Assembly: GCA_905178155.1 (NCBI GenBank)
Contig: CAJINV010000004.1
Location: 1,047,536-1,111,535, forward strand
Origin: Amoebophrya sp. A120
Lineage: Eukaryota > Protista > Dinoflagellata
Length of the DNA stretch: 64,000 nt
Direction of reading: 5' to 3'
A program made the translations under genes and the position numbers. The notes under the pieces are model-generated. The model saw only the letters and a program-made list of their open reading frames with translations. It ran no database searches and was not told where the DNA came from. Positions 38,245 to 64,000 of this stretch are shown here, one piece after another (within the stretch, counting starts at the first letter, position 1; each line of letters starts with the position of its first letter).

Positions 38245-38879
38245 TTTTCCCAAAGCGCTTGATGCGGTAAATTTGAAATTTTTGCAAGGAAACGAAAATT
38301 GTCTGCAACGAACTCTACGGAGACGGTGTGGTCGGGAGAAAGATTTAACTACCATGTGGTCTTTTCGTGAAATCCAAAACGAAAATTCTCCACATCGAGA
38401 AAATTTACATACCAAGCCGCGACACAAGCAACAACAAACCTGACACGCGACTGCGCACGCTCCTGTGAATCAAACCCCTCTGTGCAGCCTCTCTGTCACT
38501 CTACCGCTCGATAACTGATCCGCGGCGCGCGCTGTCCGCTCTCATACTGTAGTCACTATCCTGAAAATAACTCTCAGGCTCTCACTTCTACGTCTGAGTA
38601 CAAGCGAAACAAGCAACAAAACGGAAAACACGAATGAAGAGTGTGGCAAGAACACGGCGAAGCCCGAAAAGGAAATGATCCAGTCTGCTTTAGCGCCGTC
38701 TTTTCATCCCATAGAAAGAAGCATCCAGGGATTTTGATTCCTGGACGAAATGTGAAAAAAATGCTAACGCATTGCATTTCTTGATGCCCGTCCCTTCCCG
38801 CGCGCCGGCCACTCTCTTGACCGTCAGATGGTACCAAAGCTGCTAGCCACTTGTCCTCTTCCTCCCCCGAGATGATTCT

Positions 38880-39935
38880 TCAAGCGCCATCTTGATTGGC
38901 GCTCGCGCGACTACCATCATCTACTTCAGCCTTCTTGTTCATATCGGCCGTATCAGGTGGTTCCCTTACCGAGTTAATCTCATGGTCCTCTTTTGGAGAA
39001 GTAGATGTGCCACTACCCACTGCTCCGCCTTGTGATTCTTCTTTTGTTCCAGCACTGATCTCCCCCTCCGTCTTCACGTCGTTTTTTTGGTATGTTTCGT
39101 TTGCAAGATTTATTTCACCAAAGAGAAAGAAACCTCCTCCTTCGCTTGTCGCACTAGCTGTTCCGGTCGCTGTGGCTCCGGTTGCTGTAGTCGTCCCATC
39201 GTCCCCCGCAGCGGCTGCCACGACCCCTCCAGGAAAATTTTTTGTTTCCGCTTCTGCTACTTTATTTATATTTTCATCATTTTCCGCTTTTTCGTCTTTA
39301 GTACAACTTGCAGAAGTAGCCTCGTTCCCCTTCGCGTCGTCCCTACTACAACAGATGAAAATAAAGCCCGCCACGACTCCGAGCACGGCCAGGAGCCCCG
39401 TTACGATCACAATCGCGGTCCGAAGCAGACCGAATTCCCCGATTGTTCGGAACAAGCGCTGAAAAGAACTACAGCAGCCCTCTTCTTCCCGGTCGTCGTC
39501 AGTTTCAGAGGGTACTTCTACGTGATCACCCAGCCCATTTTTCGCCAAAAAATCTTCGTCATTCAACGACCCGCGGAACGTTATCGACGCCCCTGCAAGC
39601 CGTCCGCTGTTCCCAAAAAGGGTTTCGCTTTCGTCAAACACTTTTAGCTTTCGTTGCTTGGTGCCGATACAGAGAAGCGTTTTCGCTAGGTGCGGTGCGG
39701 TGAAGGAGCTCCTGCTCGTCGTAGTTGACGAGACTGCTGGTGAAGGGGGGGTTGATGTAGTTGACGAGACCGCTGGTGGCACTACTCGTTGAGAAAACTG
39801 ATTAGAATTACCTCCGATCTCGTCTTCACGGGAGGCATCAGTTTCAGTTGTACTACCTGAAGATCCTGAAATAGTACCATACCCTGCTGTTGCTGCGTGC
39901 AGCACTAGACGTGGTTCCCTCGTGTACTTCTTCAC
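38880..39935 (-). CDS. 351 aa ORF with one transmembrane helix; probably the C-terminal part of the upstream PAN-like protein
   Basis: AIVIVTGLLAVLGVVAGFIFICCS followed by an acidic tail; no ATG start; overlaps the end of ORF 39853-42753 in another frame. Confidence 0.55.
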   Translation of the reverse strand: MKKYTREPRLVLHAATAGYGTISGSSGSTTETDASREDEIGGNSNQFSQRVVPPAVSSTTSTPPSPAVSSTTTSRSSFTAPHLAKTLLCIGTKQRKLKVFDESETLFGNSGRLAGASITFRGSLNDEDFLAKNGLGDHVEVPSETDDDREEEGCCSSFQRLFRTIGEFGLLRTAIVIVTGLLAVLGVVAGFIFICCSRDDAKGNEATSASCTKDEKAENDENINKVAEAETKNFPGGVVAAAAGDDGTTTATGATATGTASATSEGGGFFLFGEINLANETYQKNDVKTEGEISAGTKEESQGGAVGSGTSTSPKEDHEINSVREPPDTADMNKKAEVDDGSRASANQDGA

Positions 39936-42753
39936 CAGTCACGAGCACTGGCACCTTAGTCAGTACGAGCAGGGGGCAATCGCTGAAGAGAACACAGGTC
40001 GTCCTTCTCTTTCTAGCACTTGTACTTCCACCACTTGATGTGCCACTATAGGTGGAAAACGCCGACGGCGCCCCGTCGATCTTCGAAATCGTGGTGAAGC
40101 TGACACAACCGCGATTTCGGGCGCACTCCAGCCTGCATGTGTTGTCATCCAGAACGGACTCCTTAAACCAATAGGCTTTGCAGTTGTCTCCCTCTTGCGT
40201 CAAGTCCAGATCCTCGGGCGCACCTACTTTTGCGCAGGGATGCACGGTCTGTGTGAGCGAGCGAGAAAACGCAGCTGAAGCTGATGAACCTTCTGGTGCT
40301 GGGCCGCTGGTATTATCTTTCAAAACTTTATCCTCGTCCTCGCCTGGCGGGCCAAGTGGATTTATTTTATCACCTCTCTCGGATGTGTAGCCACACGTGC
40401 GGACGTAGGCGTGAGAAGATTTTTCCTGTGAAGGAAGTGATGCTCCCATCGTCGCTGCAGAAATCACTTCTTCCACGTGGAAAAAATCTGGGTCCGGCTT
40501 ATCTACATCTTCCTCGTTCTCTTCTGTCTCCGAAGATCCGGCCTCCGATCCGGCCTCCTGATTTTGTTCCGCCGGCCCGCCACGTTCCTCCCTAGTCTTG
40601 GCAAATTCAACGAATCTCCGGGGGCAGTAGAAATTCAGAAATTTCGAAACCCGCCACTGGCACATCGGGAGGAGGTAATCATAACCCACTTCGTTGATGC
40701 CGTTTTTCAATGTGCTTGTGTCGTCGAGCTTGTGTAGTTCTGCATCTTCTTGGTTGTGTTCTACTTCTTGTGTATCTGGAGATGTTGACGTTGACCCCAT
40801 ACGACCTTCATCTTGTTCCGTGCTGTCTGTTATTGTTTCGTTTTGTTCTTCACGACCAGCAGTGCCAATTGATGTTGTATTCGCTTCTGCCCTTTCTTGT
40901 GCTGTTTCACTTTCAGCATCATCCCCCACAAGAACTTCCGTCCAACTCTTGCTTGCTGTCTTTGATGTCACATTCGAATACAGTTGCACCAAAAACTTGT
41001 CACCGGACCTGCCCCCCGCCACTTGCGCGTCAAATAAGCTGCTCTTATCCACCTTTTGTTCTGCTGTATCGCCGAAGAGACTGGTGACGAGTTTTTCCTC
41101 GGCACTTTTCGCCTTCTCGTCCGCTTCTTTGCGCTCTCTTTCCGCCTTCGCGAGCTGCTGCGCAATGGTCAGGCGCTCCTCGTATAGATACAATTCACAG
41201 GCGGGTTTCGTCGTACCGCTCCCCCGCACCGTGTATCCATGGCACGACGAGTTTCGGGTGCAGTAAGTGGCGCAGGTTTCGTCGATAAGCGAGAGGTTTT
41301 GGTAGGATTGCTGCCTCAGCTGGAGAATTAGTTGCTGCTCCTCGGGGCTGAGCTGGTTCTTGATGTTTTCGTCGTGGAGTAGGACAATCTCAGAAGTACT
41401 ACTAGAATTAGTGCTGTTCTTGCTTGACGTGCTATTAGCATTTGCATTTGCATTATCACCCCCGCCGTCTGTCTTGTTATTTGTTCCATTTGGGTGCACC
41501 GACAGCAGACCGGCCTGCAGCTCAAAACTTGTCGTGCTGTCGTTTGCGCTATGATAATTCGCAGATGATCCGTGTTTCTCCTGCTCCAGCAGACTGCTCA
41601 ACGAAGCGGCTGCATAATTGCCGCTTTTTATCATACTATCCAAACCTGCAACACCAACCACAGCCCGCACCACCTCCTCCGGCACGGGTCGTAAGTCCGG
41701 CGTGCAAACATTCGAAGCCACCCGGTTCTCCGCCTGTCTTCCCGCCGTCGCCTGCGCGTTCCGGCCGTCCATAAACTTCCGCGTTTTCAAGGCCCCGCGG
41801 TCGTGCCGAACGCCGTATTTGCCGCGGGCTAAGGAGCCGTCCGTATTTTTATTTGACAGACGTTTTTGTCCTTGGTGTTCTTGTCCGTCGTTTTCATTCA
41901 AAACGAGCGGTGGCGTCGGCATGCCACTGCCGGTGGTCGCAACATCATCTCGTCTAGCTTTATTTGCGGACAGACCTTGTGCCTGATGCTGATTATATCC
42001 CTCGAAGGTTCTATGTTGCAGCTCGGCCCCGGTGGCTGCATTTCTTCCTTTCTCCTGGGCAAGAACGCGTCGATTTTGACGGCGGAGGTTATTTTTCCTT
42101 GCAATCTTCGTCCTTTTCATCTTCCCGAAAAGCAGTTGCGAAAAAGAGGAAATTACACTGGAAACACCGGCAGTAGACGCAGGAGAGCCATTATTGTCGT
42201 GATTGTGTAATTTATTTTCCAGCTTAATATTTCTCTGTCCTCTTCCACCGCGGGGACGAGATGAAGATCGGCCATCACGTTGCTCATCCCGTGTTCCTGC
42301 TTGCCATTCCATTTTCTTGCTAGAAGAACTACCTTCCCTGCTCGTACTGGAACTGGAAGCAGCAGCAGCAGCGGTGCTAGAATCTTCATCCAATTCACTA
42401 TCACCTTGGACGAGTTGTTCATCTTTAGAAGTTGAAGTCGGCCGCCAATTCAAACTCTGTGACACCGTGTTTTTCCGAATTTCGTCACAGATACAGGGCC
42501 CGGACCCCACGATCACGTACCCCGTTTGACTGACGAGCCCGCGAAAACCACTTATCACCCTGGTGAGCCGCGGTGGGACTACTGCATCATGCTGTTCTTC
42601 TTTTTGTACTACACGACCTTCTAGAGATGTTGATGAACCCTGATAGAACTTGAAATCTTCAGCTCCCTCGCTGGAAGTAGAAGTTCTTGTTCTAGAGGGC
42701 CCCCACCAGCTCATCCGTTCGACCGGATTTCCGCCCGCCTGCACCGCCGCCAT
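39853..42753 (-). CDS. 966 aa ORF with two PAN/apple-like Cys modules (candidate adhesin ectodomain)
   Basis: CATYCTRNSSCHGYTV...CELY and CRLECARNRGCVSFTT...CVLFSDC fit the CxxxC-x5-C-x2-aromatic...CxL pattern. Confidence 0.6.
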   Translation of the reverse strand: MAAVQAGGNPVERMSWWGPSRTRTSTSSEGAEDFKFYQGSSTSLEGRVVQKEEQHDAVVPPRLTRVISGFRGLVSQTGYVIVGSGPCICDEIRKNTVSQSLNWRPTSTSKDEQLVQGDSELDEDSSTAAAAASSSSTSREGSSSSKKMEWQAGTRDEQRDGRSSSRPRGGRGQRNIKLENKLHNHDNNGSPASTAGVSSVISSFSQLLFGKMKRTKIARKNNLRRQNRRVLAQEKGRNAATGAELQHRTFEGYNQHQAQGLSANKARRDDVATTGSGMPTPPLVLNENDGQEHQGQKRLSNKNTDGSLARGKYGVRHDRGALKTRKFMDGRNAQATAGRQAENRVASNVCTPDLRPVPEEVVRAVVGVAGLDSMIKSGNYAAASLSSLLEQEKHGSSANYHSANDSTTSFELQAGLLSVHPNGTNNKTDGGGDNANANANSTSSKNSTNSSSTSEIVLLHDENIKNQLSPEEQQLILQLRQQSYQNLSLIDETCATYCTRNSSCHGYTVRGSGTTKPACELYLYEERLTIAQQLAKAERERKEADEKAKSAEEKLVTSLFGDTAEQKVDKSSLFDAQVAGGRSGDKFLVQLYSNVTSKTASKSWTEVLVGDDAESETAQERAEANTTSIGTAGREEQNETITDSTEQDEGRMGSTSTSPDTQEVEHNQEDAELHKLDDTSTLKNGINEVGYDYLLPMCQWRVSKFLNFYCPRRFVEFAKTREERGGPAEQNQEAGSEAGSSETEENEEDVDKPDPDFFHVEEVISAATMGASLPSQEKSSHAYVRTCGYTSERGDKINPLGPPGEDEDKVLKDNTSGPAPEGSSASAAFSRSLTQTVHPCAKVGAPEDLDLTQEGDNCKAYWFKESVLDDNTCRLECARNRGCVSFTTISKIDGAPSAFSTYSGTSSGGSTSARKRRTTCVLFSDCPLLVLTKVPVLVTGEEVHEGTTSSAARSNSRVWYYFRIFR

Positions 42754-42762
42754 TGCGTACGG

Positions 42763-43974
42763 TCACAGCTGATCGCCAGCCTTGCGCTCAATTTGCAATT
42801 TCTCCTCGTCGGCGTGATCCATAAATTTCTTCTTACTGCTGGTGTGCATCAGTTCAGCATCTTGATCTTGCCCCGTACGCTTCAAATACGCGATCATGCG
42901 GTCGTCGGCGTTTCGTTGCTGTTTCCAAAACTCCATATTCATCTGCCTGTCCAAAGGGCTGGACCACTTCGACTGGATGAGTTCCTTGCGTGTCCCCTCT
43001 CTAAAGACGACTCCTTTCCCATGCCCCTTGGTCGTCCTCTTGGAGGTTTCTTCTTCTTGAGCAGACTCGAGGACAGTGGTCCCTTGGAGACAACACGAGT
43101 CGAGTCCCAGGAAGTGATTCGAGTTCATCTTCGATAACGTCGCTCTTCTACTTCCGGGGTCGGGGTCCTCGACCTCGAGCTCGTCGATGTTCAAAATCGG
43201 TGTAGAAGTCATCACATTCATCCTCCCTGGACAGCACATCATGCTGGGCGGGGACGAGGGGTTGTACCATGTTTCTGCACGATTTCTGTGGTCAACAACA
43301 TTGTCCTTTCCATGACTGTCGAAGTACTTTTCTCTGCAGAAGCGGTAATTGGAGCACTGCTGACCGCTCGGCTTCCCGACTCCTGATAAAAGAGACAAAG
43401 CTCCTGCAGACGAGGACGATCGTGAAGACAGAAAGGACGTAGTAGAGCGCCATCCTGAAATTGTGGTAGGTGCATGTGCAACTTGATCGGGGACGACTGC
43501 ATAATGATCCTTGATGGCTTCGTTCAAGTCGTTCCGAGGATGCTGCAACATCGACATCGATAACGAAGGTTCTTGTCGTGCTGGGAAAGCAGCTACATGG
43601 GAGATGCCTCCATCAATCGCGGCTTGTTGTTCTACCTTGGCGGATTCAATCCTATCCCCCTCTCTACTGTCGGCACCATTGTTAATGCCCGGGCGACGTC
43701 GTCGAAGAAGCCTCTTGTGCTGACCTCTAGAAGTACTGTGTTTTCTTTTCTCTTGCGGAGAAACTTCGTGCCGCGGTTTCCATTCTTTGATGGACCTACG
43801 ACCGTGCTCGGCAAGAAGATTTGTTCCAAATCCAATGGCGCCACTGGTGCTTTCCACAAGAAATAAAAAGCAAATCAAAACTTCCATGACTGCCAAAAGG
43901 GGCCAAACCCAAAAGTTGCGAAGTGGCGGTTTCAATTTCATCAATTTCATTAACATGAACATCCTTATCGCCAC
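42763..43974 (-). CDS. 403 aa ORF with a signal-peptide-like N-terminus; same frame as 39853-42753, separated by one TGA
   Basis: FWVWPLLAVMEVLICFLFLVESTSG; Cys cluster (CSNYRFC, MCCPG, SCCL). Confidence 0.6.
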   Translation of the reverse strand: MAIRMFMLMKLMKLKPPLRNFWVWPLLAVMEVLICFLFLVESTSGAIGFGTNLLAEHGRRSIKEWKPRHEVSPQEKRKHSTSRGQHKRLLRRRRPGINNGADSREGDRIESAKVEQQAAIDGGISHVAAFPARQEPSLSMSMLQHPRNDLNEAIKDHYAVVPDQVAHAPTTISGWRSTTSFLSSRSSSSAGALSLLSGVGKPSGQQCSNYRFCREKYFDSHGKDNVVDHRNRAETWYNPSSPPSMMCCPGRMNVMTSTPILNIDELEVEDPDPGSRRATLSKMNSNHFLGLDSCCLQGTTVLESAQEEETSKRTTKGHGKGVVFREGTRKELIQSKWSSPLDRQMNMEFWKQQRNADDRMIAYLKRTGQDQDAELMHTSSKKKFMDHADEEKLQIERKAGDQL

Positions 43975-44805
43975 GTACTGTTATTTTCTTGTTTGGTTCA
44001 AGAGTAGGACCCTAGCACCTACTCGACAAGCGCAACGTAAATAAAGGAACAGCATATACAGCTGTTGGACAACTCTACGTAGTTTTATTATTGGTGTTGA
44101 ATACAGCAACCTTGAATACAGCAACCAGGGTCAGGGAGGGGGTCAACTACTTCTTAAGGGTTTCAATAGACCGTAAGCGACCCGTGCTCGAGTACTGTGC
44201 CTGTAGTAAGAATGTCACGAAAACAAGATATACTCCAAATGAAATTCGTACTACCTGTACTTCCTGCTGACTCGCTTGCTGTTGCTACTTAACCACGCAC
44301 CGGGTAATAAAGTAGGCTTGACAATAAACGGGAGTACTGCTTCAGTGAGTACGACTTGCTACAGAACGAAACGATGCCGGACGACACCAAGGGAAATGGC
44401 CACGATTGTGAAGGGATAGTACAGACACGCTAGGTCGTCCAGCGCACGACAGATGGGAGTCAGAACTACCAACGACTTAATTCACGAGGGAAGCACACGA
44501 CGTGGTGACTAAAAAACTAAAAAGAAAAACACGTCAACAGCCAAACGCGAACAACAACAATTCTCGATGGATGTAGCTAGAAGCCCTAGGAGGGCCCCCG
44601 CCGGCTGCTACATCTTTGGCTGACCAAGCAGAACAAAGGTTTGCGAGCGCAGCGCCAGAAACGCGGAACTAGTACACGGGATCTGACGAACAAGCAAACA
44701 TTCTAAATAGCTAGAACAGGTGCACTTTACCTTCATCGTACGTCGACGTACGTACAGAAACAGGTTGTACAAGAACGTAGACGACGCGCCTCTTTTCATT
44801 ATTTT

Positions 44806-47800
44806 TCACGTACTTTTCATTTCAGTTTCGTTTTTTATCAGGCAGTTCTCCAAAACAGCAATGCACACTTGATTCCATTCGGAGATTGCGTCGTCCTGCG
44901 CTTGCTTCCCTCTCGAACTCTGGTCCTTACTGCGGCCGGTTGTTCGGATGCCATTTTGTTGCAAAATTTGTTCTGTCCTTTTGATCATAACCTCGATAAA
45001 ATCCTGCAGTTTCTGTTTGAGCTCGTGTTCTTCTGTATCTTGTTTGAGTTCTTGGTAGTCGCGTTTGTCGTTAGTATCGCCCCAGTGCTGATGTTTATCG
45101 TCAGTAGCAGTCGGCCCACCGGTGGTTTTTGCAACCAGAGCTTCCATTAACTCGACTGGTGGTAGTGCGAGTGCCGTCGGGGAAGTAGTTGTACAACCTT
45201 CCTCCTCGTCTGGTATCGCTATTTGATCAGCGACTTCAGCCACCAGATCCAAAAACCGGGCCGGCGGACAGACCTTTTCATCTTCGGGGGCATGATCCTT
45301 GTTGCTGCTGTCGTGTGCCCCCTTAGTGGTCTCGGTGGTTATTTCTGCGCCCCCATGAAGATCAGAGTTGTTGTAGACCCCCATCATCGTCCACAGCACC
45401 GAGAAGAGCGGCCGCAGTACGTGCACGAACTTTTTCCACTTCGGTTTCTCCGCGAACTTCACGAAGTCCCGGTAATTCTGCTTCCCGTGGTTCCACCACG
45501 CCAGGCACAGTTGGTGTCGATCGAGCTGCTGGCGCGCGAACGGGAGTAAGATGCGCTGAATCGCTTCAGTCGTGCGAAACAGCACCGGAGAAAACAGCAA
45601 ATGCACCATGGACGGGTTCGAGGTAGTCAGCATCTTGCACGAGTGCCGTATGACAGTGCACAACTCCCCCTCCCCCTCATTCGTCATGCAAAATACCCAA
45701 TCCACCCTTTGCCACTTGGCACTGTGTGCATGACAAGTTCTGGTAGTCCAAATAGCACTATACTCTAGTGCAAATCTGTCATGCAAAACCGGCATTGTTG
45801 CTGATGCTTGTATTGCCGTTCATGCTATACAAATGAGGGGGAGGGGGAGTTGTGCACTGTCATATGCCGGATCTCCCAACCAGAAATCTCGATGTCGATG
45901 GCACTGCTACTGGAATTTGTTGTGGTAGACGTCGCTCCTGGTACAACTAGATGATCTGAAATCGTGCTACTAGACTCTTGATGTTCAGGAAAACTACTAC
46001 CAGTAGCTCCAGCGGACGTCGAGGACCACGCGGACCCGCAAGTGAACGATGGAAAGACCTTCCGAAATTTCTGGACCGGCTCCAGAAAGGAGAAATAGGC
46101 CTGGTGACTGTCATGCGCGAAAATTACATGCACGTCGTGGTCACTGGTTTCGGTTGCCGTACCAAGCAGCTGCGAACAGCAGGCGTAGCCCGCGTGGAGA
46201 ATTTTTATCTTCTCCTCTGCTTCGATTTGCGCAAGGATCTGCTGAATTTGCTCGCTTATTTCTTTGCCGGAACTGGATCGGGTGGGGTGCAACAACTGGA
46301 CCATGTTGCAGCTCTGCCTCCCGGACGTCGCATCCACTCCTTCTACAGGGAATGTGGTGGCTGATACTGGCGTCGGAATCACGCCAGGTTCCTGATCCAG
46401 CGACCTCGACGTAGTTCCAACGGTTTGAAGATGATGTTTCCCTTGTTCCGCAGGGGTTAAGTGAAGCGTGCCGCTTTGAAGATGTTCAACACTTTTAATA
46501 CCGCCGCGAACAGGCGGCGTGAAAGTAGTTCCGCTCGTACTAGGCAGAACAGCACCCACTATCATCTTCTCTCCGACCGTGCTCCCAGAAGATAATTCCC
46601 GTATTATAGACCGTGGAGAATCTTCTTCGAAAGAGTTCGCCGTTTCGGCAAACATACCTGTCATCAAATTATCCCGATGCTTGTCCGCCGTTTCCCGCAG
46701 GCGGACGGTGAAAAGCCAATCCGAGAGCTTTTTCACGTCCACTTCCGCGGGTAGGAGCTTTTTCATCTTCGTTACTTCCGCTTTTTCTTTCAATGCTGCG
46801 TACTTCTGCAGCGGCTCCCGCAAAAACCCTTCCGCCTCTTCCCGGCTTCTCGGCAAGCACCCGAGCCGACTCTGCATCACAAATTCGTGTTGTTTCCCCT
46901 CCAATTTCACCAGCGGCTCTTCTAAGTTTAGAATCCGCTGCAACTCAAAAATCTTGTGCCACGCATGGTAGAGAAGCTTGGAGACGCGTTTGGCGGCTTG
47001 CGTCTCTTGCTCGGACAGGTCCAAGGGGGACATAGTCATCTGGTGCGAGGGCGCCGCGGGGAGAACGCTGACGCCCTCTTGTCCACCTCCTGTAGTCTTT
47101 TGCGCCACACCGCCACGCTCTTTATTCCCATTCAGCTCCACAAACTTTCCGTCTTTATCTTCCTCTTCAGCCAGAAGAATTTCCGGCCACTCCGCCACCT
47201 CCTTCTTCGCCCGATACAGTCTTTCCCCAATGAAGCCAAGATACTGCGCCACGCTTCGTAGCGTCAGGAACATCCGCCGCTTTTGCACGAGTTCCACCCA
47301 GACGGAGCTCCCCTCGAAGTGCTTATGCAATGCAAAATTCGAAAAGCATAAGCATCGTACTTCTACTTGTTGTATGAATGATTGCATGGCAAATTTATTT
47401 TTCAAAAACAACAATGCAAAACTTCACTTGTCATGCTAGACCAGGTAGCAAGTTAGATTTCATCACGAGTGCAGTTTTACAGATGCAGATGCTTTGGCGC
47501 AGGATAGCGCTTCCGCGTGAACAACATCTCCAAGTTGCGTGGGTTCCCCTTGCAGAGCTCACACAAAAACGCTCCCAATTCCCGCCCCGTGTACTATGCA
47601 TTGCAAAAGTATCGTACTAGTATGAATTCATTGCAATACAAACTTTCTCAGCACGAGATTAACTTCTTGAGAAAGAAATTTGTAATGCATCAATGCGAGT
47701 ACTACGAGTACGATACTCATGCACAGGATATGTACTCCACCGTGCCGAATTTGTCGCTGGCAAACCCACCGGAGGCAGCCTGGTGGAACTGGAACTGCGT

Positions 47801-50043
47801 CGGGCCGGGAACCCGGGAGCAAAGGTCGCCGGAGCTGGCGAGAAAGATGATCGAGTAGTCTTCGTCGGAAGTCTTCGTGTGCAGGTCGTACAAAAAGGAA
47901 CCCGTTTGCGCCAGAAACACCAATTCCGCGTTCCGCGGCCACTTCGCCCGCAGTCGCGACGCCCAGGAGGCGGGCAGCGTGCCGTAGGTCAAGGGCAGGT
48001 AGTCGTGTAGTTCTTGCGGGGCGGAGGTCAGATTCAATTTCTTCAAAGCGCCGGGGCTGATCGGTGTAGTTGTACTCTTGGCGGCAAAGTTTTGGAAATC
48101 CCGGGCCCGAATCCGGTCCACCCAGTCGTCTAAGGCGACCGAGAGACTGTCGAGGGAGGTGATTTCCAACGTGGTTTTCATCTGCTTGTCCACCATTCTG
48201 TCAACGTCAACATTTTGGTCCTCTTGCACCTTCGACGCAAAATCAACCAGCAGTCCATCCTTCGACTTTGTTGCTGCCGTCATCAGGAAGGAAGCAAGCT
48301 CACGCATCTCCGCCTTTTCAAAAATCTCTGGCACCACGACATCAGAAGCTATACTGGGCGAATTACTGGGTGGTCCTTCAGTGGTTTCACCGCAGCAGAG
48401 GCGTGAAAAAGAATCCGGAAGCACACTTTTGTCGATCCCAAAAGCCGCACGCTGCGCCAAAGCGGTACACAGTGTAGTTTCCTCGGCGGAGAGAAATAGA
48501 TTGGCTGCAGTTGACGGCGGTTCTTTTGTTCGTGGGTGTAGTACTGCCTCTTCTAGTATAGGAGGCGCGGCTCCATCCCCTGCTCCCAGCTCGTTGGGCT
48601 TTCCGCCTTGCGTGCTCGGCTTTTTTTTATAATTGGCATTTACCTTTTCTCTCCCCTTGGAGTTCTTCGCCGACATCCATTTTCCCGCCTTCACCAGACT
48701 CAACAACGGCCCGGCGCACGCGCAGCGGTTATGGGATGCTCAAATGTTCTCACATTCATCAGCACTGTAGGTATACTTGGTTTATTGTCACGCCAAATCA
48801 CTACCACCGTCCACGCGATCGAGCTGCTTCGCATGACAAGAAGAACTCGATGCTGGGACTGGGCCTAACTAGTATAGGAATCCGCGCCAAACGCGTAATG
48901 CAATACGCGCACGCTCTCGTCCCCCTCCTCCCTCTCGCTTTTGCTATTCCTGCATGACCAAATTGTAATGTAACAGAGAGCAATTTCACATTTGAGAATC
49001 CCATAGCGGTAGCACTTGTGTTTCAGCAGCGCCTCTAGCACCGGAGGGGGACAAATGGTCTGAATGATCGGGAGAAAGTCGTCTGAGACGAACAGGGTCG
49101 TCGTACCAAAGATTTCTCCGGCAACTACATCTGTTTCGCGCGGACGGCTTGCAGCTGGTTCAAGAACGGTTGTGCCACCAGGCGACTTCTTGTTGGCAAA
49201 GTAATGTAATAGATCTGGGTCAAATCCTTCTTGATACTTAGATGCAGCCGCGACTTCTTGTTGCCCCCGCTCGCTGCCGGCCCGACTTCTCTTTATTTGC
49301 TTTTCTCGATCCGAACCTAATAAAAAAAACCTTTCGATACTCCAACGGTACAGCACCTCCAGCACGCCGGGATTGCCCTTCACCAGCAAGTGCGCAAACT
49401 GGGTTATGTCATGCCACGAGACGGAAACAAGCACTCGACGTGGTCCTCTCGATGATGTTGGAGAAGGAGTCTCCTGCAACTGCTTCGCAGAAGCCCTAGT
49501 AGTAGAATCTTTTTCAAGAGAAGCCACGTTTTTGATACCGCCTTCCTGTAGTTTTCGTCCACTTTCATCCTTTGTTCCGACCACCACTTCAGGGCTTGTT
49601 TTAGAGGAACAAGGGCCCTCGTCGTCCGCCTTCGGTGAAAAAATCTCGAAGACCTCCTGTCTCGGTTGCAACGTTGCCACTTGCTTCCCGCTTACGATCT
49701 CTTGGAGCTTGTCGAAAATCTGCAAACGCGCTTCAACTGGGGTTGAGCAGACGGCGATCACGTGGTGCGTCCTCGTGGATATTTCTGCTCTACCTGCAGG
49801 TGCAGGGCTCGATGTACTACAATCACCTCGTGCGTCGACGTGCGTGTTCTCAAGAACGGCGTTAGAAGAATTTCTTGCGCTTCCTGCTGGCAAAAAGCAC
49901 TGCGAATTGTAGCTCCCGCCCCCACCAGCGAGCGGGAAGATGTCCAATCCAGCGAAAAGCAAACGCGGAATTCGTGCTTGCAGCTCCTTCACGAGAGTTT
50001 CCACCTCCTGTGACGAGGAAAGTTGCTCCGGCGGAGTCGCCAT
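44806..50043 (-). CDS. ~1468 aa protein with tandem RlaP/YcgL-like (Pol-beta superfamily) nucleotidyltransferase domains; 4 introners
   Basis: Removing 831 nt leaves 1469 codons. Motifs LAQTGSFLYDLHTKTSDEDYSIIF...ELGAFLCELCKGNPRNLEMLF and CCSQLLGTATETSDHDVHVIF...SGWEIRH|SCKMLTTSNPSMVHLLFSPV are completed only across the introner junctions; a degenerate first repeat reads HDITQFAHLLVKGNPGVLEVL. Confidence 0.82.
45649..45864. mobile_element. TIR introner, family E
   Basis: Perfect 33-bp TIR tatgacagtgcacaactccccctccccctcatt; TSD tgccg. Confidence 0.95.
47324..47506. mobile_element. TIR introner, family C-like (decayed)
   Basis: tatgcaatgcaaaa...tttggcgcaggata; TSD gtgct/gcgct; removing 188 nt restores the frame. 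Confidence 0.8.
47595..47730. mobile_element. TIR introner, family C
   Basis: tatgcattgcaaaagtatcgtactagta...tacgagtacgatactcatgcacaggata; TSD tgtac. Confidence 0.92.
48730..49005. mobile_element. TIR introner, family B-like
   Basis: tatgggatgctcaaatgt...acatttgagaatcccata; TSD gcggt. Confidence 0.9.
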
Positions 50044-50623: not shown

Positions 50624-51289
50624 TTAACTTCCTTTCCCCTGCTTCTCCTCGTCGTGCACGCACGTTGCAAAAACGCCGAATCTGGCCATATCATACATGA
50701 GTGCGTAGTCCACGAAGTAGCCGAAAAGCAGGCGGAAGTCCGGCCGCACAAAGTGCAACCCGAAATACATGGCGAACGGGTAGTAGAGTTTCACCACAAT
50801 CCAAAACAAAGCCAGCAAGTTCCGTTTTCGTGTGTAGTAGGCTGATGAACTACCACACAAAACCGCATGCAGCACCAACATCGGTAGGAAGACCAGACTG
50901 TGTTCCTGGTAAGCCAAAAGGGACGCCGCCATGGTGTCGCGTGTTTTCACAATGAAGGAACCTTGTACATCTGTCGTCGCTTGCGCCGCAATCAGGTGCA
51001 GATAGTACAGAAAGCCCCAAATTAACACCAAATCTATCGGGAAATGTTTGAGGAGGTTTCTTTTGGATACACCGAGGACACCGTCGGCGTGCATATTACG
51101 CCGGTCGCAAACACTGCTTGTTGCCGGCGCGGCGGGGGCATTTCTAATATTTTCGGCCCGGTAGAAGCCGAATAGCGCAATCCGGAAGCTGCCGTTGCGT
51201 CGAAGCAGTGAGGTCATGAAGAGGAAACAAAAGGCAGAGAGGGTGGTCAGGGAAAGACCCACCCGGATCAGGTTAAAAACAACACTCAT
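50624..51289 (-). CDS. 221 aa multi-pass membrane protein, unknown function
   Basis: ORF starting at ATG with 4-5 hydrophobic segments. Confidence 0.65.
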   Translation of the reverse strand: MSVVFNLIRVGLSLTTLSAFCFLFMTSLLRRNGSFRIALFGFYRAENIRNAPAAPATSSVCDRRNMHADGVLGVSKRNLLKHFPIDLVLIWGFLYYLHLIAAQATTDVQGSFIVKTRDTMAASLLAYQEHSLVFLPMLVLHAVLCGSSSAYYTRKRNLLALFWIVVKLYYPFAMYFGLHFVRPDFRLLFGYFVDYALMYDMARFGVFATCVHDEEKQGKGS

Positions 51290-51974: not shown

Positions 51975-54900
51975 TTACGAACCAACGCCGTCAACAGGCA
52001 ACACGCTACCACTTTCCCCCTCGGCGGAGGCGATCGCGGCGTCTCTTCGGTCTTTCCGCATTTGGTCAATCTTTGCACACACCTCACTCATGCCCTTGGA
52101 CCGTGCGATCATGTAACCCGACTTACCGATTGGCGACTTTGCGTCCTTGATCAACGGCAAAAAAAGATCCATCTGGGTCTGGATGATACTTAGTGCCAGT
52201 GTTTCTTTTTGTCATACTGTTTTTTGTGCTCGAGAATGAAGGTCTCGTGTGGCTTACGGCTACGGGCCATATTAGCATGACAGATTGTAATATTGAGAGG
52301 GTTTTTCAATGGCTATGGTCCCGCATGAGAAATTATCCCCTCTTCCGCTTGGCGACAAGAAGTTGGCAACTACGCTTGCAGCAGTGGTCCATGACGGGAT
52401 AATTTTCTTTGTGTGAAGATCTGAAAGGCACATCATCAAAAGTTTCGTTTGCAGGAATTCCCAGACCCAGATGGATATATTTGCACTAGCATAACCTTGA
52501 AATTCGCCACGTCGCAGGTCGCGAGGTCGAAGGATTTGTGCGCCAGAATGGCGAAGCAGAGGCGTTTGAACCCGAGCTGCGCTGCGCGGGAGAAACAGGT
52601 CCGGCCAGACGAGTATCAAAATGAAAAATCCCCCCTCCCCATATCAAAGCGGATTTTTGTGCTGCTGATTTGTGGCCACAAATCAGCTCTGCATTGCAGG
52701 GAGGCACTGCGGCCAGATCCCCAAGCTAGGTAGGGGCGTATGGGTCTAGTTGTTCAGCATGGCAAACGGCTCCCCTCTAGGCCCAACAACGTGACAAATC
52801 GCCTCCATAATGGGGCGGAAGCTTCTGCCCTTGTCTTCTTGCAAGACAGATGTGATTTGTGACCTCAAATCCGCAACACAAATTTTTGGAAACATACCGT
52901 TTCAATATGGGGACGGGGGATTTTTCCTCTCTATAACGAGGTCTTCATGTTCATCATCGTTCTGTCCAGGCTATGCGTTGCAAAAGTACTGTCCTATCAT
53001 AGATAGGTGCCAATACAGATTTCACATGTACTAGACTTTTATTTTGAAAAGGAAATGCACAGTGGGTCGTGAAAAATGCAGGTTCTCCTATATCTACTTA
53101 TACTTTGCGGTTGTATTGCCAACATTTATTACACGAAGAATACAATACTTTTGCAGTGGATAAAGGTCCGGGCGCTGCAGAATCTCCAGCCCGAGGTCCT
53201 CGTTGGTTAAAACGGTCAAGCAGGTTTCCCCGTGTTTGTCGTTCCGGTTAAGTGCGAACGTGGACAAAAGGTAAAACTCGGTGGAAAATAAAACGTGGTC
53301 TTTCTGCTCCTGTCTAGCTCCTCGTCGACACACCTCAGAAGACACCACGACCTCGGGACCCACTTGGCACCGCACCAGATTGCTTTCGTTCTCGGTCTCC
53401 ACGACAATCTCAGTCACGATTACAGGGGGCTCCGTGGTTGTACTGCATCTACTACGTGAAGTTGTAGATGAAGAGGCCGCGGCGGCACCGTCGTACCAGA
53501 GGTTTCGGCAGAACAGTTGCCCCTTCTCCCCGTGCTCAACCCAGAAATCGGATGGGTGCAGTGTGCTGCTGTCGTCGAATGGTGGTACTGGAGGTGGCCC
53601 GCTGCTGCTAGAGCCGCCGCCCGTGTTGAAGTTTATCATCATGCCAATATTATCGGACGAGAACACAGGATGAGGACGAGAAGAACCTGCGACATCAGTC
53701 GTACCAGCGGTACTAGGATCATCTTCACGCCCCAACGAGGACGAGAGAGCTACAGCTTGTTCTGCTTCCTGTGCTCCCGCCGCCACCCCAGTTCTTCTTG
53801 TTGTACTTGTAGCAGGAGTTTTCTTCCTCCTCCTAACAACCCGCACGCGACGTCTTATCATCAGCCGGGCCAGGCTTGTGTCCTCGGCGCAGACAAATTG
53901 AAACAGACTGGATCCGGACTCCCGGTCGCAGTGGTTCACCATCAAAGGCGGCGTGAAACTGGACTCCAGGAAGGCCTGGAGCGTTGCGATGGCGGAAGAC
54001 CGCTTGACCCTGAATTGCGCCGGCGTAGAGGTGCGAGCGGAAAGAAACCCGGTGCGCCAGAGGTTCCAGAGGTACCGGTCGGAATAGTGCAACGACTGCT
54101 GCAGCTGCAGCTGCGCGTCCCGCGCCAAGATCTTTGCGTTCGCGAGTCTCTGGGCTTCTAGTGGATCATTTATTTTCACGCTACTTTTTTTTGACAAGGC
54201 AGTTACTTCACCTCCGTGGTGTTCCTTGTCCCCGGCCCCCGCAGATGCTGTTGTATTTGCATCGGGACGTTGAACAACTTCTGCTGGGTCTGTTGTTAGA
54301 TTATCGGCATTATGAAAATCTTCAGCTTCACGGAAGTTCATCAAGGCTGCTGGCGTGGTAGTGATACTGTTTAAATTCTCCGGATTTTGTTCCGCCTCCA
54401 GGATTTCGTGGGCCACCGCCACCATGCGGGCGTTGTAAGCCAGCTCGTTGGCCTGCACCAACCGCGCCTGGAAATCGGCAAATTTCCGCATTTCCCGCTG
54501 GTAGATCCAGGCCCGAAGAAAATCCACGCGCGACTCGAGCTCCAGTTTCTTCGCTGCGACGGCAGAGGTTGATGTTCCTGCAGTATTAACAAGCGGTCTT
54601 TGATGAAGAGGTGGCCCTGCTTTTGGCTCCACGATGGCCTGATAGATCCAGAGCCGGCTGTTTTTCCCGGGCGGCTTCCCATCAGGGTAAAACTCGTGCT
54701 GCTTGATCAGAAGCCTGTACTTCTTCTTCGAAGATTTATTATTTGGCGGAGGCAGGAAGTTACTACAAGCTCTAGCTCCCGCTGCATCTTTATTGCCACC
54801 TCTTCCAGGAGCTTTGCCTAACTGCGCCGCTACTGTGCTACCGTCCATGCTTGTAGAAGTTAACCTGTAGGCATCAGTTTTGGAACGACCGTCTCTCTTC

Positions 54901-58552: not shown

Positions 58553-58640
58553 CCTAGCAGCAACTCACGAAGCTGCCAAAGCCGTGGCCGGTGCAGCAGG
58601 TGTAGATGAGTTTCTTCCCCAGTTTTTCTCCTTTCTTCTT
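58553..58640. repeat. Third, partial copy of the duplicated exon (KLIYTCCTGHGFGSF)
   Basis: ctagcagcaactcacgaagctgccaaagccgtggccggtgcagcaggtgtagatgagtttctt is identical to the sequence from 62437 onward and similar to that from 60150 onward. Confidence 0.85.
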
Positions 58641-60149
58641 CGTTCTACAACTACCCAGCTTTGCCAATCCTGTCAGAGCCGCTCCCCCCTTTGTTCACAC
58701 AACGAACAAAGCGCGGAGCCTGCTACTTGCGGATTGATGAGTGTAATTTGTTGACACTACGAATTTTTAAAGCGTTTTGACTATTTTGCTCATTTCTTAT
58801 TTATTCCCACTGAACAACTACTATATTACCCAGCAAGCAAGGTAGAGGTCCGCCGTCGGATCCACCTTGGCTCGCGGGACCAATTCTAAGTACGTGAAGA
58901 TTCGGCCGTTGGCACAGGTTTTGTTTAGGAGTCCCAACAAGATGACCTCCCACTGCGGCCACGGATCCATGTAGATGAGATTGCAACTACCGAAGATTTT
59001 TTCTAGAACAGTTCTTGGAATTTGATTTGTTCTTCAGCTCTACTGCTCATCTTTTCGTCCAGGCGAAATACTACCAGCGCCTTGGAAGTAGATACACTCC
59101 CGATTTTTTTTTTAGCAAAATACCACACCGGGTTTGCTTGTTCAGACCCTGCTGTGACACCTTGCTTTTTTCCACCATTATTTCGAAAAAGTAGGCACAA
59201 AGAAGTAGTCGAGATTGTTGAAAGAAACACGACCTTTGTACCAAAGTAAGTCTCGTCTCACAACTCTGCTTTTCACCCACTTTGATACCTTGCTTTGTTT
59301 TCTGAGAATTGGCTCTGGATTTTTTAACTTTTGTTGTTATCACGACATGGACGTAAAAAAATTCACTTTTTCTCACTGAAGACATAGTCACGACTTTTTT
59401 TTCAAAATAAGTCATCACCGCTAATAGTTTGCCAGAAAGATATGCGCGTCTCACCGATGCATTCTCTTGTCTCACCGCCATCTCATATTACGTTTTCACC
59501 TTTTTCTTTTTCACCGCCTAGTTAAGATACTACCGAAAATTAATATTGCAGCATAGTACGGACGATTTGTAAGGAGCACGACGACAATTGAGATTGAAAA
59601 ACTTGAACTGTTTTTCCGTTTTCACTCACTATTTTACGAGGCCGTTGTAAAGGAAGTACGCGATGAAAGTTTCGTCTGGAAAGGAAGTACGTGTCTGCCA
59701 CGTGATCGCGTGGCATTTGGCACTAAAACTTGAAGCTGAAAACAAGCATCAAACTCGGTGTAAAACTTGTTGAATATTATCGCGCGTATTGCTCGATTTT
59801 TACTGAATCTTGGTACATCAAACACTTGTACCATCTTAAAGGCACATCAAGATGTCTGCCGCAACCGCAGACGTGTCGTCTCAGGACGATGATAGTGCAA
59901 CTCTGATGCTCCGCCTGGCCTCCATGGGCTACAAAGCCGATGCAGACGCTCCGGGGACCAGCGGTGGGATAAGTTCCGGCACAGAAAATCATCCAACGAA
60001 TAATGCGGGGGAAGAGGTGGATATTGCGAGTGGCGCCACGAAAACAGGCACCGGCTCTCAACTGATCGGGTATAACATGCTTTTTTTTGAGAAAAATGGA
60101 AAATTGAAATCTTGATCTTCCGTGAAAGATCTCTAGTAGGTGTGTTGCT

Positions 60150-61646
60150 GAAGCTGTCAAAGCCGTGGCCGGTGCAGCAGGTGTAGATGAGTTTCTTCGA
60201 TTGTTTTTTCGATTCTTTTTCCGTCCGTGGCGGTTCCGCAGGCAAATTCAAAGTTGCTGACGCCGCCGCCGGATTGTACTGCGCGTTTGCATTGCCGCCA
60301 ACTTCTTCGGATCCGTTGCTGCAAACTTCGTCCTTGTCATGATACGGTTTGCCAGTCAAGGGATTTATCTGCGTCACCATGGCAAAAAACTCCCCACAAG
60401 TCTTGGGTGGTTCGTCGGCAGCCTGGGTTTTTCCCTGACCGTGAGCAACACTGATGCGTATCACCAGCAAATAGTGATGTGGGTTCGCAAGATCGTTGTA
60501 GCATGTGCCATGCACATGCTTGTCTGGCACAGCTCTCAGCTCTCTACTAATACAGGCGCATGATGAAGTAGAGATCCTGGTCCTGCTCCGCTGACCCATA
60601 AATATAATGCGCAAACGCAACGCCTCATGCAAAATACGCAGCACATCATAGCAAGGGAAAATCAAAGAAACTGGTCTTGCTTCGCTGCGTAAGGTTTGTG
60701 CGGCAGTGCGGGTGCGGCCATCATAGTTTACAACATTCAGAGAATTGCATCACGACCTAGCAGACCCAGCCAAATTTGCATTCGATAACGCGATATCCAA
60801 GACAAAAACTGTAATTAATACACCCACACCCTCAGCAGAGAGAGATGCCAAAAATCGTGCGTTACCCAGTTTTTTCTTGTTGTGTTACAGAAAGAAAAAA
60901 CCGCCTGTGGTTCTTCAGTATCGTTGTTCAATTTTATTGCATTGCGGCGCTTTTCTTTGACTTTGACTCTGTCGTTTCATTTATGATAGATTAATATCTT
61001 CATCTCGCATTGCATGACATATTCTGCATTTTGCTTACCAGTACCGTAGGTTTGTATTTTTTTGAAAGAATCTAAGTTCATCAAATTTGACAGCATTATC
61101 ACAACATATTCTTTTTCGTCTCCGCTGGTCCTGGTCCTGCTTCTATGTGTTGTGTATAATTTGCTTGTTTCTGCTTGGATATGCGACTCAGCAGCTGCGC
61201 CACGTCCACGCCCGCCACCGCCTCGGGACCCCCTGCTCCGTTGAAGGCGGCGCCACCACCCAGAATACCCATCGTTCGGCGAAACTTCATTTTGACCCTC
61301 GAGATGAAACGCGACGGCGAAAATTTCAACAAGTTCAGGTGAAATAGCAAGGTGCAAAACAAAGGCGTAGAAATTGAAAATGAAATCGTAAAGGATCAGA
61401 AAATAAATGTTCGAATATGTTTTGAGTGCTGATTTGTCAAATGAGGAAGTTGTAGGGACCTGCTTGGAAAAGGGAGATGATGATGAAGCAAAGAAGGGAC
61501 GTGGTAAGAGATACAACGTATTTCAACATGCTCGTCCTCCTTTTCCTTGTATAACAATATCATGATGATGTAAGTACCCAACCGGGGGGTCAAAGAAATA
61601 AGATTAAGAACTTCATTTCCTGTTCATCGCATGCAAAAACTAAACC
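60150..61646 (-). repeat. Tandem duplication, copy 1; exons of a small Cys-containing, probably secreted protein
   Basis: Colinear with 62452-64000; shared peptides GGNANAxYNPAAASAT, KKLIYTCCTGHGF and ELVEIxAVAFHLEGQNEVSPNDG. Full exon structure not resolved. Confidence 0.8.
60459..60787. mobile_element. Old family A-like introner shared by both duplicates
   Basis: tatcaccagcaaatagtgatgtgggtt...gacccagccaaatttgcattcgata; TSD atgcg/acgcg. Confidence 0.75.
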
Positions 61647-62765
61647 GCGCACCACACCGAGATTCCAGTTCCACACATCACAAACGTACGACGAATACAA
61701 CTACCGATGTGATTCATTTTACCGCGACAAGACCGATCCGTTATAACTTTCCATTTGTTCCACATCAAGAACGAGACCGATGAGTAGAGCAGTCCTCTCC
61801 TCCAATGACCGACACTACACGAGCACAACCACACGAGGACGCATTGGCATTTTGGATACACATATGGTAATTGATTCTTCATATCACCGACATACTTTTG
61901 GTCCGAATTAAACCGAGTTGGAGTTGTGATGTCACTTTGCTGGACGACATGGAAACAAATTATCGTAGTCTTTAGGAGGTGTTGTACTTGTTTCTCTTGG
62001 AAGATTCGTCGGTGGATGTTCTGAAGAAATAAAGAAGTCCAACAGCTAGGGCAAACCGATCACTACTCAGACTACTTAGTGCATCACCATTTTCATTCCC
62101 GTTCGCTTGCCTGTGCTGGAGGAAATTAGAATTAAATTGCAAAGTATCCATCGATCGGGCCGTGTGTTGCTTTCGGTTGTAAAGAGGTGTCAAAAGGGTT
62201 GATAATGGGACGTAACGGTCACCTGTACCTGGTCCTGGAAAGTACATCAAGTTCAAGTATTGTATGCATTTACAATAAATTTCAACCTTTGAATCGATAG
62301 ATGGTGAGATCGACTTCAGTAAAGTTCTTTCGTTGTTCGACATGAAGGTAAAATGAATCAATCATGTGCAGATCACTTCTTTGCGCCTCTGGCTCTGCTC
62401 CCCGGCGCGAGGCTTTCCTCGTCCCAAGTAGCACAACTAGCAGCAACTCACGAAGCTGCCAAAGCCGTGGCCGGTGCAGCAGGTGTAGATGAGTTTCTTG
62501 CTCTCTTTTTTTCCTTCTTCTTCGTTGCCGGGGGCTTCTTTAGGCAGCGTATAAGTTGCTGACGCTGCCGCCGGGTTGTACCTCGCGTTTGCATTGCCAC
62601 CAGCATTTTTTGAAGTCATGCTGCAAAATTCATCCTTGGACACCTGAGTCTCGGTCTGGGAGGATACAATCGAGGATAATTCCGAGAAGATTTCGTCACA
62701 CGTCCCGGTTTGGCCGGGGCCGAACCCCTGCTGCGTCTCCCCAGTACCATGAGAAGTGCCGACGC

Positions 62766-62919
62766 TATGAATTGCAAAAGTATCGTACTCGTATAAATGC
62801 ATTAGTTACAAATTTCCTCAGCATGAAAAATGAAATTTGTAATGCTGATTTGCCTTAAGAGAGAGATTTGTAAACGCATGACTGCAATTACTACGAGTAC
62901 GATACTTTTGCACTGGATA
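62766..62919. mobile_element. TIR introner, family C; present only in duplicate copy 2
   Basis: tatgaattgcaaaagtatcgtactcgta...tacgagtacgatacttttgcactggata; TSD gacgc. Confidence 0.93.
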
Positions 62920-62925
62920 GACGCG

Positions 62926-63200
62926 TATCAACTGCAAATATCTATCTGGTCCGGCAGTCATGCTTGTCTGACACAGCTCTCAGCTAATGCAGGCGCACGA
63001 AGTAGAGCTCCGCTGACCGGTAAAAATGCACAAACACAACGCCCCATGCAAAATACGCAGCACATAGCAACAGGAAAACTGGTCTTGCTTGGCTGCGCGG
63101 CAAGATTTGCATTCGTGTCGCAGTGCTGCGCCCATCATAATTACATCATTCAGATAATTGCGTCACGACCTAGCAGACCCAGACAGACTTAAATTCGATA
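62926..63200. mobile_element. Old family A-like introner, paralogous to 60459-60787
   Basis: tatcaactgcaaatat...gacccagacagacttaaattcgata; TSD acgcg/atgcg. Confidence 0.75.
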
Positions 63201-64000
63201 ATGCGATATCCAAGACAAAAGCTGTACAATTACAGCCTCAGCAGAGAGAGATGCCAAATCAAGTAAGCGCAATCGTGATGTGTGACGCATTTTCTTGTGT
63301 CACAGAAAGAAAAAAGCGCCTGTAGTTCTTCAGCGTTCTTTCTGTTCAATTTTATTGCATTGTGGCGCTTTTCTTTGATTCTGTCGTTTCATTATCATCG
63401 TGATCTCGCAGTGCATGACATATTCTGCATTCATGCTTACCAGCGCCGTAGTTTTGCATGTAATCTAATTTCGTCTAATTTGACGGCATTTTCATCATAT
63501 CATCCTGATCTTTTTCATCTCCGCTGGTCTTGCTATTTTGGGTTGTGTAGAATTTGCTTGCCTCTTGGATATGCGACTCAGCAGCTGCGCCACGTCCACG
63601 CCCGCCACCGCCTTGGGACCCCCTGCTCCGTTGAAGGCGGCGCCACCACCCAGAATTCCCATCGTTCGGCGAAACTTCATTTTGGCCCTCGAGATGAAAC
63701 GCGACGGCCAAAATCTCAACAAGTTGAGGCGATATAGCAAGCTGCAAAGCAAAGGCGTAGAAATTGAAAATGAAATCGTAAGGGATCAGAAAATAAATGT
63801 TCAGTAAGTTTTGAGTGCTGATTTGTCAAATGTGGAAGTTGTAGGGACCTGCTTGGAAACGGGAGATGATGATGAAGCAAAGAAGGGACGTAAGAGATAT
63901 AACGTATTTCATCATGCTCATCATGCTCCTCCTTTTCCTTGTTGACAGTATTAAAGAAATAAGGATTTATTTCGTGTTCATCGCATGCAAAAACTAAACG

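Follow-up and report, generated by a model that had tools for sequence, protein, structure and literature searches.

Three introners stacked at overlapping target sites in Amoebophrya sp. A120 are probably spliced singly, with two predicted one-base exons

More than 60% of the introns of Amoebophrya sp. A120 are non-canonical, and many of them carry inverted repeats starting with TAT and direct repeats of 3-5 nt (Farhat et al. 2021, PMC7789003). In the available text of this genome paper the position of the cut relative to the hairpin is given as unknown (legend of Fig. 3), and it was left open how tens of thousands of non-GT-AG introns are removed and where the cut falls. The elements described here, E1, E2 and E3, are members of the published introner class. 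They share with it the organism, the TAT inverted repeats, the 5-nt boundary repeats, the non-GT-AG ends and, in the case of E1, the occurrence in a repeated family. They differ in that three elements are stacked, that their target sites overlap and that mismatches bound the cut register; the class of element is known, and what is new is the arrangement. Perfect target duplications conceal the cut, whereas stacked and aged elements with mismatched duplications expose it. The terms micro-exon, small exon and short exon do not occur in the same text.

Introners of Micromonas, Aureococcus and Polarella/Symbiodinium (PMC9860276, PMC12130899, bioRxiv 10.1101/2020.10.14.339549) are MITE-like, with terminal repeats, a target duplication and intron ends that derive partly from the duplication, as here; unlike those found here, their ends are canonical or near-canonical with AG. 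Insertions 1 nt apart are not reported in the portions of these papers that are accessible, and the corresponding portion of PMC12130899 does not mention nested, twintron, recursive or adjacent. The nonconventional introns of euglenids (PMC6221363, PMC12501133), as described in the available text, also have variable borders joined by a terminal stem, but in another lineage. One-base exons inside a codon have been described, a single one in each case as far as these accounts extend, in Arabidopsis APC11 (PMC4674806), Fusarium CYP621A (PMC12940212) and placozoan mitochondrial cox1 (PMC5436844). In contrast, two consecutive ones are predicted here, which would stem from transposon insertions, lie between non-canonical ends and distribute a single codon among three exons. 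Fungal [D1,2] stwintrons (PMC12403724, PMC8469720, accessible text) are alike in their repeated hairpin-ended introns, successive removal, one-base offset and occasional one-step missplicing. They are nested U2 GT-AG introns with a forced inside-out order (PMC12403724), whereas the elements described here are adjacent and non-canonical, have duplicated target sites, and include a middle one, E2, that is removed while its neighbour is intact. Searches of an open-access library and of the text of PMC7789003, PMC12130899, PMC9860276 and bioRxiv 10.1101/2020.10.14.339549 brought up no stacked introners, consecutive one-base exons or A120 cut register.

The window, that is, the whole stretch of DNA that was analysed, comprises 64,000 nt and contains two copies of a gene on the minus strand. 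In a homolog search, positions 62440-62760 (minus strand), which belong to the last coding exon of copy 2, matched P0001 at 100% identity; this is a protein of Amoebophrya sp. A120 with 144 aa (CAD7944182.1, model GSA120T00015616001.1). Three homolog searches, with longer proteins left out, returned only P0001 and a second protein, P0002, and no outgroup or ortholog. A Pfam search of P0001 gave no family, and an Atlas search with it gave no usable match; the predicted structure was of low confidence. Six of the 11 runs listed were used (X1, X2, X4, X5, X9 and X10), and the list contained no run recorded as RNA. The RNA evidence consists of assembled contigs of runs X1, X2 and X4, which are presumed to be RNA. 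These contigs covered 20, 20 and 18 of 30 bins, respectively, in a comparison over a part of the window that includes copy 1. In the same comparison run X5 behaved like DNA, with 30 of 30 bins covered and a flat depth of about 43x in single-copy bins; the DNA-like control covers copy 1 and not copy 2. From the raw-read runs X9 and X10, 0 and 1 reads aligned. On exon 1 the depth of X5 rose to 150-195x against 43x in single-copy sequence, and this ratio therefore points to two or more close paralogs outside the window.

Copy 2 contains three non-canonical introners, E1, E2 and E3, and copy 1 contains E2 and E3. In the sense of the gene, copy 2 begins with a first coding exon (63573-63680, minus strand; Met1-Arg36) that matches P0001 and whose 3' edge presupposes the cut register proposed below; an X1 contig starts at 63571 with a depth of 800. 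The 365-bp E3 (63207-63571) follows, with TGCGA on both sides and a predicted intron at 63203-63572. A spacer of 6 nt (63201-63206, minus strand) separates it from E2, an older introner of 275 bp common to both copies (62926-63200; predicted intron 62922-63201). Another 6-nt spacer (62920-62925, minus strand) leads to E1, a young introner of 154 bp present in copy 2 only (62766-62919; predicted intron 62762-62920). E1 has a perfect 5-bp duplication, GACGC, with its outer copy at 62761-62765 and the second at 62920-62924. The last coding exon (62437-62761, minus strand) would run from the third base of Ile37 to the stop.

Copy 1 is built in the same order: first coding exon (61183-61290, minus strand), E3 (60794-61181, 388 bp, one mismatch in the duplication), a 6-nt spacer (60788-60793, minus strand) with a predicted 1-nt exon at 60789, E2 (60459-60787, 329 bp) and the last coding exon to its stop (59847-60454, minus strand), in which the deposited P0002 starts at an internal Met. 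Base 60789 is diagnostic, as it is absent from both outer flanks. Copy 1 (59847-61290) has no stop after the terminal Cys pair and reads on into a different tail; it may be decaying. A third, shorter paralog piece lies at 58554-58694 and ends in the common C-terminal stretch KKLIYTCC...SCC, and other variants of this piece occur in the contigs (58576; with a depth of 663 in X1 and of 75 in X5).

All five elements start with TAT, end with ATA and have terminal inverted repeats, a feature that measures 8-20 nt in the published class; the repeats match at 13/16 positions in E1 and in E3 of copy 2 and are decayed in E2. The direct repeats agree at 5/5 nt for these same two elements and at 4/5 for the other three. 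The duplication of E1 shares 4 of its 5 nt with that of the adjoining E2, and when all three duplications are projected onto an ancestral site of 7 nt they occupy positions 1-5, 2-6 and 3-7, each offset by 1 nt. E3 of copy 2 carries 5-9 stops in every frame. The deletion of all three elements, with 5 nt for each, yields the deposited 144-aa P0001, with the frame LLSRIGT (SRIG) across the site.

An earlier reading of this DNA, made from the sequence only, had noticed the 154-bp element at 62766-62919, found in copy 2 and not in copy 1 between two GACGC, as well as the 6-nt spacer 62920-62925 in front of the shared element (at 62926, and at 60459 in copy 1) and the overlap of the new duplication with that of the old element. 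All of this was confirmed. Its description of two introners 6 nt apart was correct in the spacing and incomplete in the number, as the third element, E3, and the second 6-nt spacer (63201-63206; 60788-60793 in copy 1) had been missed. As a consequence, the stretch CLGYR, which it took for an in-frame exon, proved to be the terminal repeat of E3, whose frames are closed by the stops mentioned above, and the RT-PCR product it proposed corresponds to the E3-retaining form and not to the mRNA.

The sequence-only reading also proposed that E1 was gained after the gene duplication, and this is likely, since E2 and E3 are shared and diverged between the copies and E1 has close relatives in the window and in the contigs. 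In the aligned columns the two copies are identical at 234/266 for E2 and at 295/340 for E3, with indels in addition. Contigs at least 90% identical were found on the bins of E1 at depths of 1,023-1,669 in X1 and 298-601 in X4, and on those of E2 at 12 and 0. Six relatives of E1, 58-81% identical, occur within the window; E2 resembles other elements at its end only, and E3 resembles its paralog only. E2 and E3 would thus be older than the duplication, E1 would have entered copy 2 later, and every target site would lie 1 nt from the previous one. The reverse history, in which E1 preceded the duplication and was then precisely lost from copy 1, would change the history only. It draws on the fact that no outgroup or ortholog was found by which a tree could show the polarity. 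Against it, the duplication of E1 is perfect, its terminal pairing is the strongest and its close relatives are numerous; E2 and E3 have diverged by 12-13% plus indels and are without such relatives. A precise loss is rated improbable.

The degree of divergence is uneven along the gene. The first coding exons (61182-61291 and 63572-63681) agree at 108/110 nt and the introns at about 87-88%, and the last exons (60135-60458 and 62437-62765) are only 71% identical. The N-terminal similarity next to a fast downstream change may reflect either gene conversion or a strong N-terminal constraint.

The spacing of the elements was compared with chance. A list of 27 elements was compiled for the window, which leaves out the weak candidates at 50689 and 63498 (3/5 repeats) and two found later (6173 and 11983); 22 of the 27 have a perfect 5-nt direct repeat. 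Three of the 26 gaps among them are of 6 nt, all at this pair of loci, and the next smallest is 36 nt. When 25 insertions were placed at random in 28.5 kb (200,000 trials), a pair 1 nt apart was obtained in 3.1% of the trials and a triple in 0.0025%, odds that are to be read with the post hoc choice of the locus in mind. A search for the spacer pattern yielded 9 matches, which fall at 5 places; 0.74 were expected (0 of 100 shuffles). The shuffles disregard that the elements themselves supply these motifs, and the junctions account for 3 of the places only. The match at 60985 is internal to E3. The other one, a fourth 6-nt spacer at 2639-2644 (site 2635-2648), has no partner end within 900 nt and was discarded as a chance match.

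Splicing products were examined in the contigs. For copy 1, X2 contains a 701-nt contig, free of mismatches and at a depth of 65, that skips 60454-60787 (334 nt, that is, the 329 nt of E2 plus 5) and keeps E3. The corresponding joint 60453->60788 is absent from the DNA-like X5, where 60169-61203 is unbroken, as it is also in X1. One element can thus leave alone, at 6 nt from a neighbour that is kept. For copy 2, an X4 contig consists of 210 nt identical to 62552-62761 joined to 26 nt at 63201 (joint 62761->63201), at a depth of 4.5; this product lacks E1 and E2 and retains E3. The fully spliced junction (62761->63571, a skip of 809 nt) is present in X1 with a depth of 467, and a loose end of 24 nt, identical in X1 and X2, leaves no letters in between. 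Copy 1 occurs mostly in the E3-retaining form in X1 and X2, and its fully spliced junction was not found among the 15 of 21 joints listed. All partial forms seen retain E3. The removal of E2 was seen alone and that of E1 and E3 within joint products, with non-GT-AG ends throughout; removal of E1 only is represented by a contig end, with no direct junction in the contigs.

These products show that the locus is transcribed, and the deposited model needs all elements removed, so that an untranscribed or pseudogenic copy 2, which the sequence-only reading had named as one outcome that would overturn it, was not found. The term twintron-like, which it had applied to the locus, does not hold, since the elements are adjacent and not nested, each pairs with its own ends, and E2 leaves while E3 stays.

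The signals assigned to copy 2 might instead originate outside the window, in close paralogs devoid of E1 (or E2), while copy 2 would be poorly spliced or decaying and crippled by E1. Variant letters of X1 contigs at 62513-62547, 62717-62726, 63614 and 63749 fit such a source, as do the extra paralogs implied by the X5 depth. In particular, 5 letters and 3 gaps at 62717-62726 distinguish copy 2 from the X1 contig that runs up to the fully spliced junction, and unseen paralogs may supply this junction or some of the contig ends. However, the X4 contig without E1 and E2 matches copy 2 across the diagnostic 62717-62726, the frame of copy 2 is intact and deposited, and the removal of E2 in copy 1 is specific to that copy and not seen in X5. 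Paralogs as the general source are on these grounds thought quite unlikely.

Reverse-transcriptase template switching between short direct repeats is a known artefact, and every element of the locus is a hairpin between direct repeats of 5 nt. The partly spliced contigs could have arisen in this way, and the X4 contig has a depth of only 4.5. Against this, the open frame requires removal, as there are stops inside the elements, and the retained spliced paths have depths of 65 and 467. In addition, more than 60% of the introns of A120 are non-canonical (PMC7789003). An artefact of this kind is considered very improbable overall, though it may have affected the low-depth contig.

The gap between the elements was expected from the sequence to require either a microexon or a stepwise removal. 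This is supported, though one long cut had been overlooked. The first and the last duplication overlap at positions 3-5, and since one long cut yields a product of the same length, the mature mRNA alone is no proof of microexons. The mature mRNA could accordingly arise by one cut over the whole 809-nt block through this 3-nt overlap, with the single-element forms as side products and no microexon at all. Four cut positions lead to an in-frame product of the same length, one pair of which gives the observed base, and the mature junction looks alike for one cut or three. Fungal twin introns are also removed in one step, which is reported as missplicing in the available text (PMC12403724). On the other hand, the cuts that give the observed base end in AT..GT or TA..CG with unequal offsets at the two ends, the outer ends of the block hardly pair, and partly spliced forms occur in both copies. 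One single GT-AG intron can be set aside: of the 15 cut positions that skip 809 nt, none has GT-AG or GC-AG ends, and the sole AG end in register (CA..AG) gives the wrong base. Folding, carried out without a shuffle control, gave -20.9, -26.9 and -35.5 kcal/mol for the self-pairing of the ends of E3, E2 and E1, and -6.4 kcal/mol with 0.0 expected cross pairs for the outer ends of the block; the predictions thus favour three separate hairpins. Removal of the block in one step is on the whole regarded as unlikely.

The preferred reading is that the three side-by-side introners are probably spliced singly, at a fixed distance from the hairpin, so that two one-base exons complete Ile37; we give it a probability of about two in three (0.66). 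Any uniform offset leads to 1-nt exons; if the whole block were cut out at once with a uniform offset, 1-2 nt would be lost. From the junctions described and the contig ends we infer the one-base exons, the cut register and the removal order as follows.

The register was evaluated as the number of duplication nucleotides kept on the left side of the plus strand. Position 3 of the target site varies among the repeat copies, and since it differs among them it is diagnostic. The E2-only, E1+E2-out and fully spliced junctions require an offset of 0-1. A control element at 52972-53162, which belongs to a different gene on the minus strand, carries mismatches at positions 1 and 5 of its duplication; X4 record 16 stops there at 53164 and not at 53163, which requires an offset of 1-4, a lower bound given by one X4 contig end with a depth of 9, whose joint is not among the 15 of 21 listed. 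Offset 1 is the sole offset that fits all four junctions, and the introns would then end in AT..GC, TT..CG and CT..GT. T at +2 is what this register predicts, and all 9 predominant non-canonical sites of A120 in Table S4 of PMC7789003, in its available part, have it (GT, CT, AT, TT), although these sites may reflect the placement of ambiguous junctions by the aligner. An attempt to fix the register from the deposited protein at the element 2407-2638 was dropped, as the mismatch there is synonymous. This element and that at 6173-6367 have one duplication mismatch each, which could fix the register.

In the sense of the transcript, each intron would consist of 1 nt, the element and 4 nt, and would start with N-T-A-T. 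Whichever way the element is oriented, the TAT of the repeat would fall at +2 to +4 of a spliceosome-like 5' site. The predicted 1-nt exons at 63202 and 62921, one in each spacer of copy 2, would provide the first and the second base of the Ile37 codon, so that Ile37 would receive one base from each of three exons. As a guess based on Farhat et al., the catalyst may be a modified spliceosome without U1. The sequence-only reading had held such a splicing pattern to be hard for a conventional spliceosome. The one-base exons weaken this argument, since they are known in GT-AG systems (PMC4674806, PMC12940212, as far as accessible) and do not by themselves lie beyond the spliceosome.

The removal would proceed from 3' to 5', that is, E1, then E2, then E3, and with this order no step would handle a free one-base exon. 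X1 contigs end or start at 62920, 63230, 63201, 63571 and 62738, with a start exactly at 62920 in the E2/E1 spacer and an end at 63201 in the E3/E2 spacer. Four of the X1 contig ends were compared with simulated isoform sets (k=31): of the 64 sets, 4 fitted when the offset was 0 or 1, and none fitted when it was 2. Each of the four fitting sets includes the E1-out and the E1+E2-out forms, and none includes a form from which only E3, or only E1 and E3, have been removed. The smallest of them comprises the unspliced, E1-out, E1+E2-out and all-out forms. Assembled contigs lose minority paths, and the absence of E3-first forms is for this reason weak evidence.

The locus offers a one-base test of the proposed mechanism, as Val or Ile in the mRNA of copy 1 separates stepwise from one-step removal. 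If the preferred reading is true, two consecutive one-base exons exist and transposons provide a route to microexons. In that case long non-canonical introns in A120 may be composites, and the counts of introns and introners would be too low. Going further, A120 introners might prefer insertion sites 1 nt from an introner already present and be spliced as by a ruler (with cuts 1 nt ahead of the hairpin and 4 nt behind it; N-T-A-T, no AG), which would produce chains of one-base exons and codons from three exons all over the genome, hidden in long introns annotated as single. This extension is tentative and at present doubtful.

Other elements of the window show related features. At 52614-53162 two introners lie 36 nt apart, and when each is removed with 5 nt a stretch results that we take to be ankyrin-like. 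The element at 52614 is of very high copy, with an X5 depth of 38,000-49,000 in its bins. Related elements were found in both orientations (1827-2061, 2407-2638 and 3814-4055; 33605-33867 and 33927-34188), as expected if symmetrical ends permit splicing either way. The element at 11983-12261 has a left end CAT instead of TAT, with a perfect 5-nt repeat.
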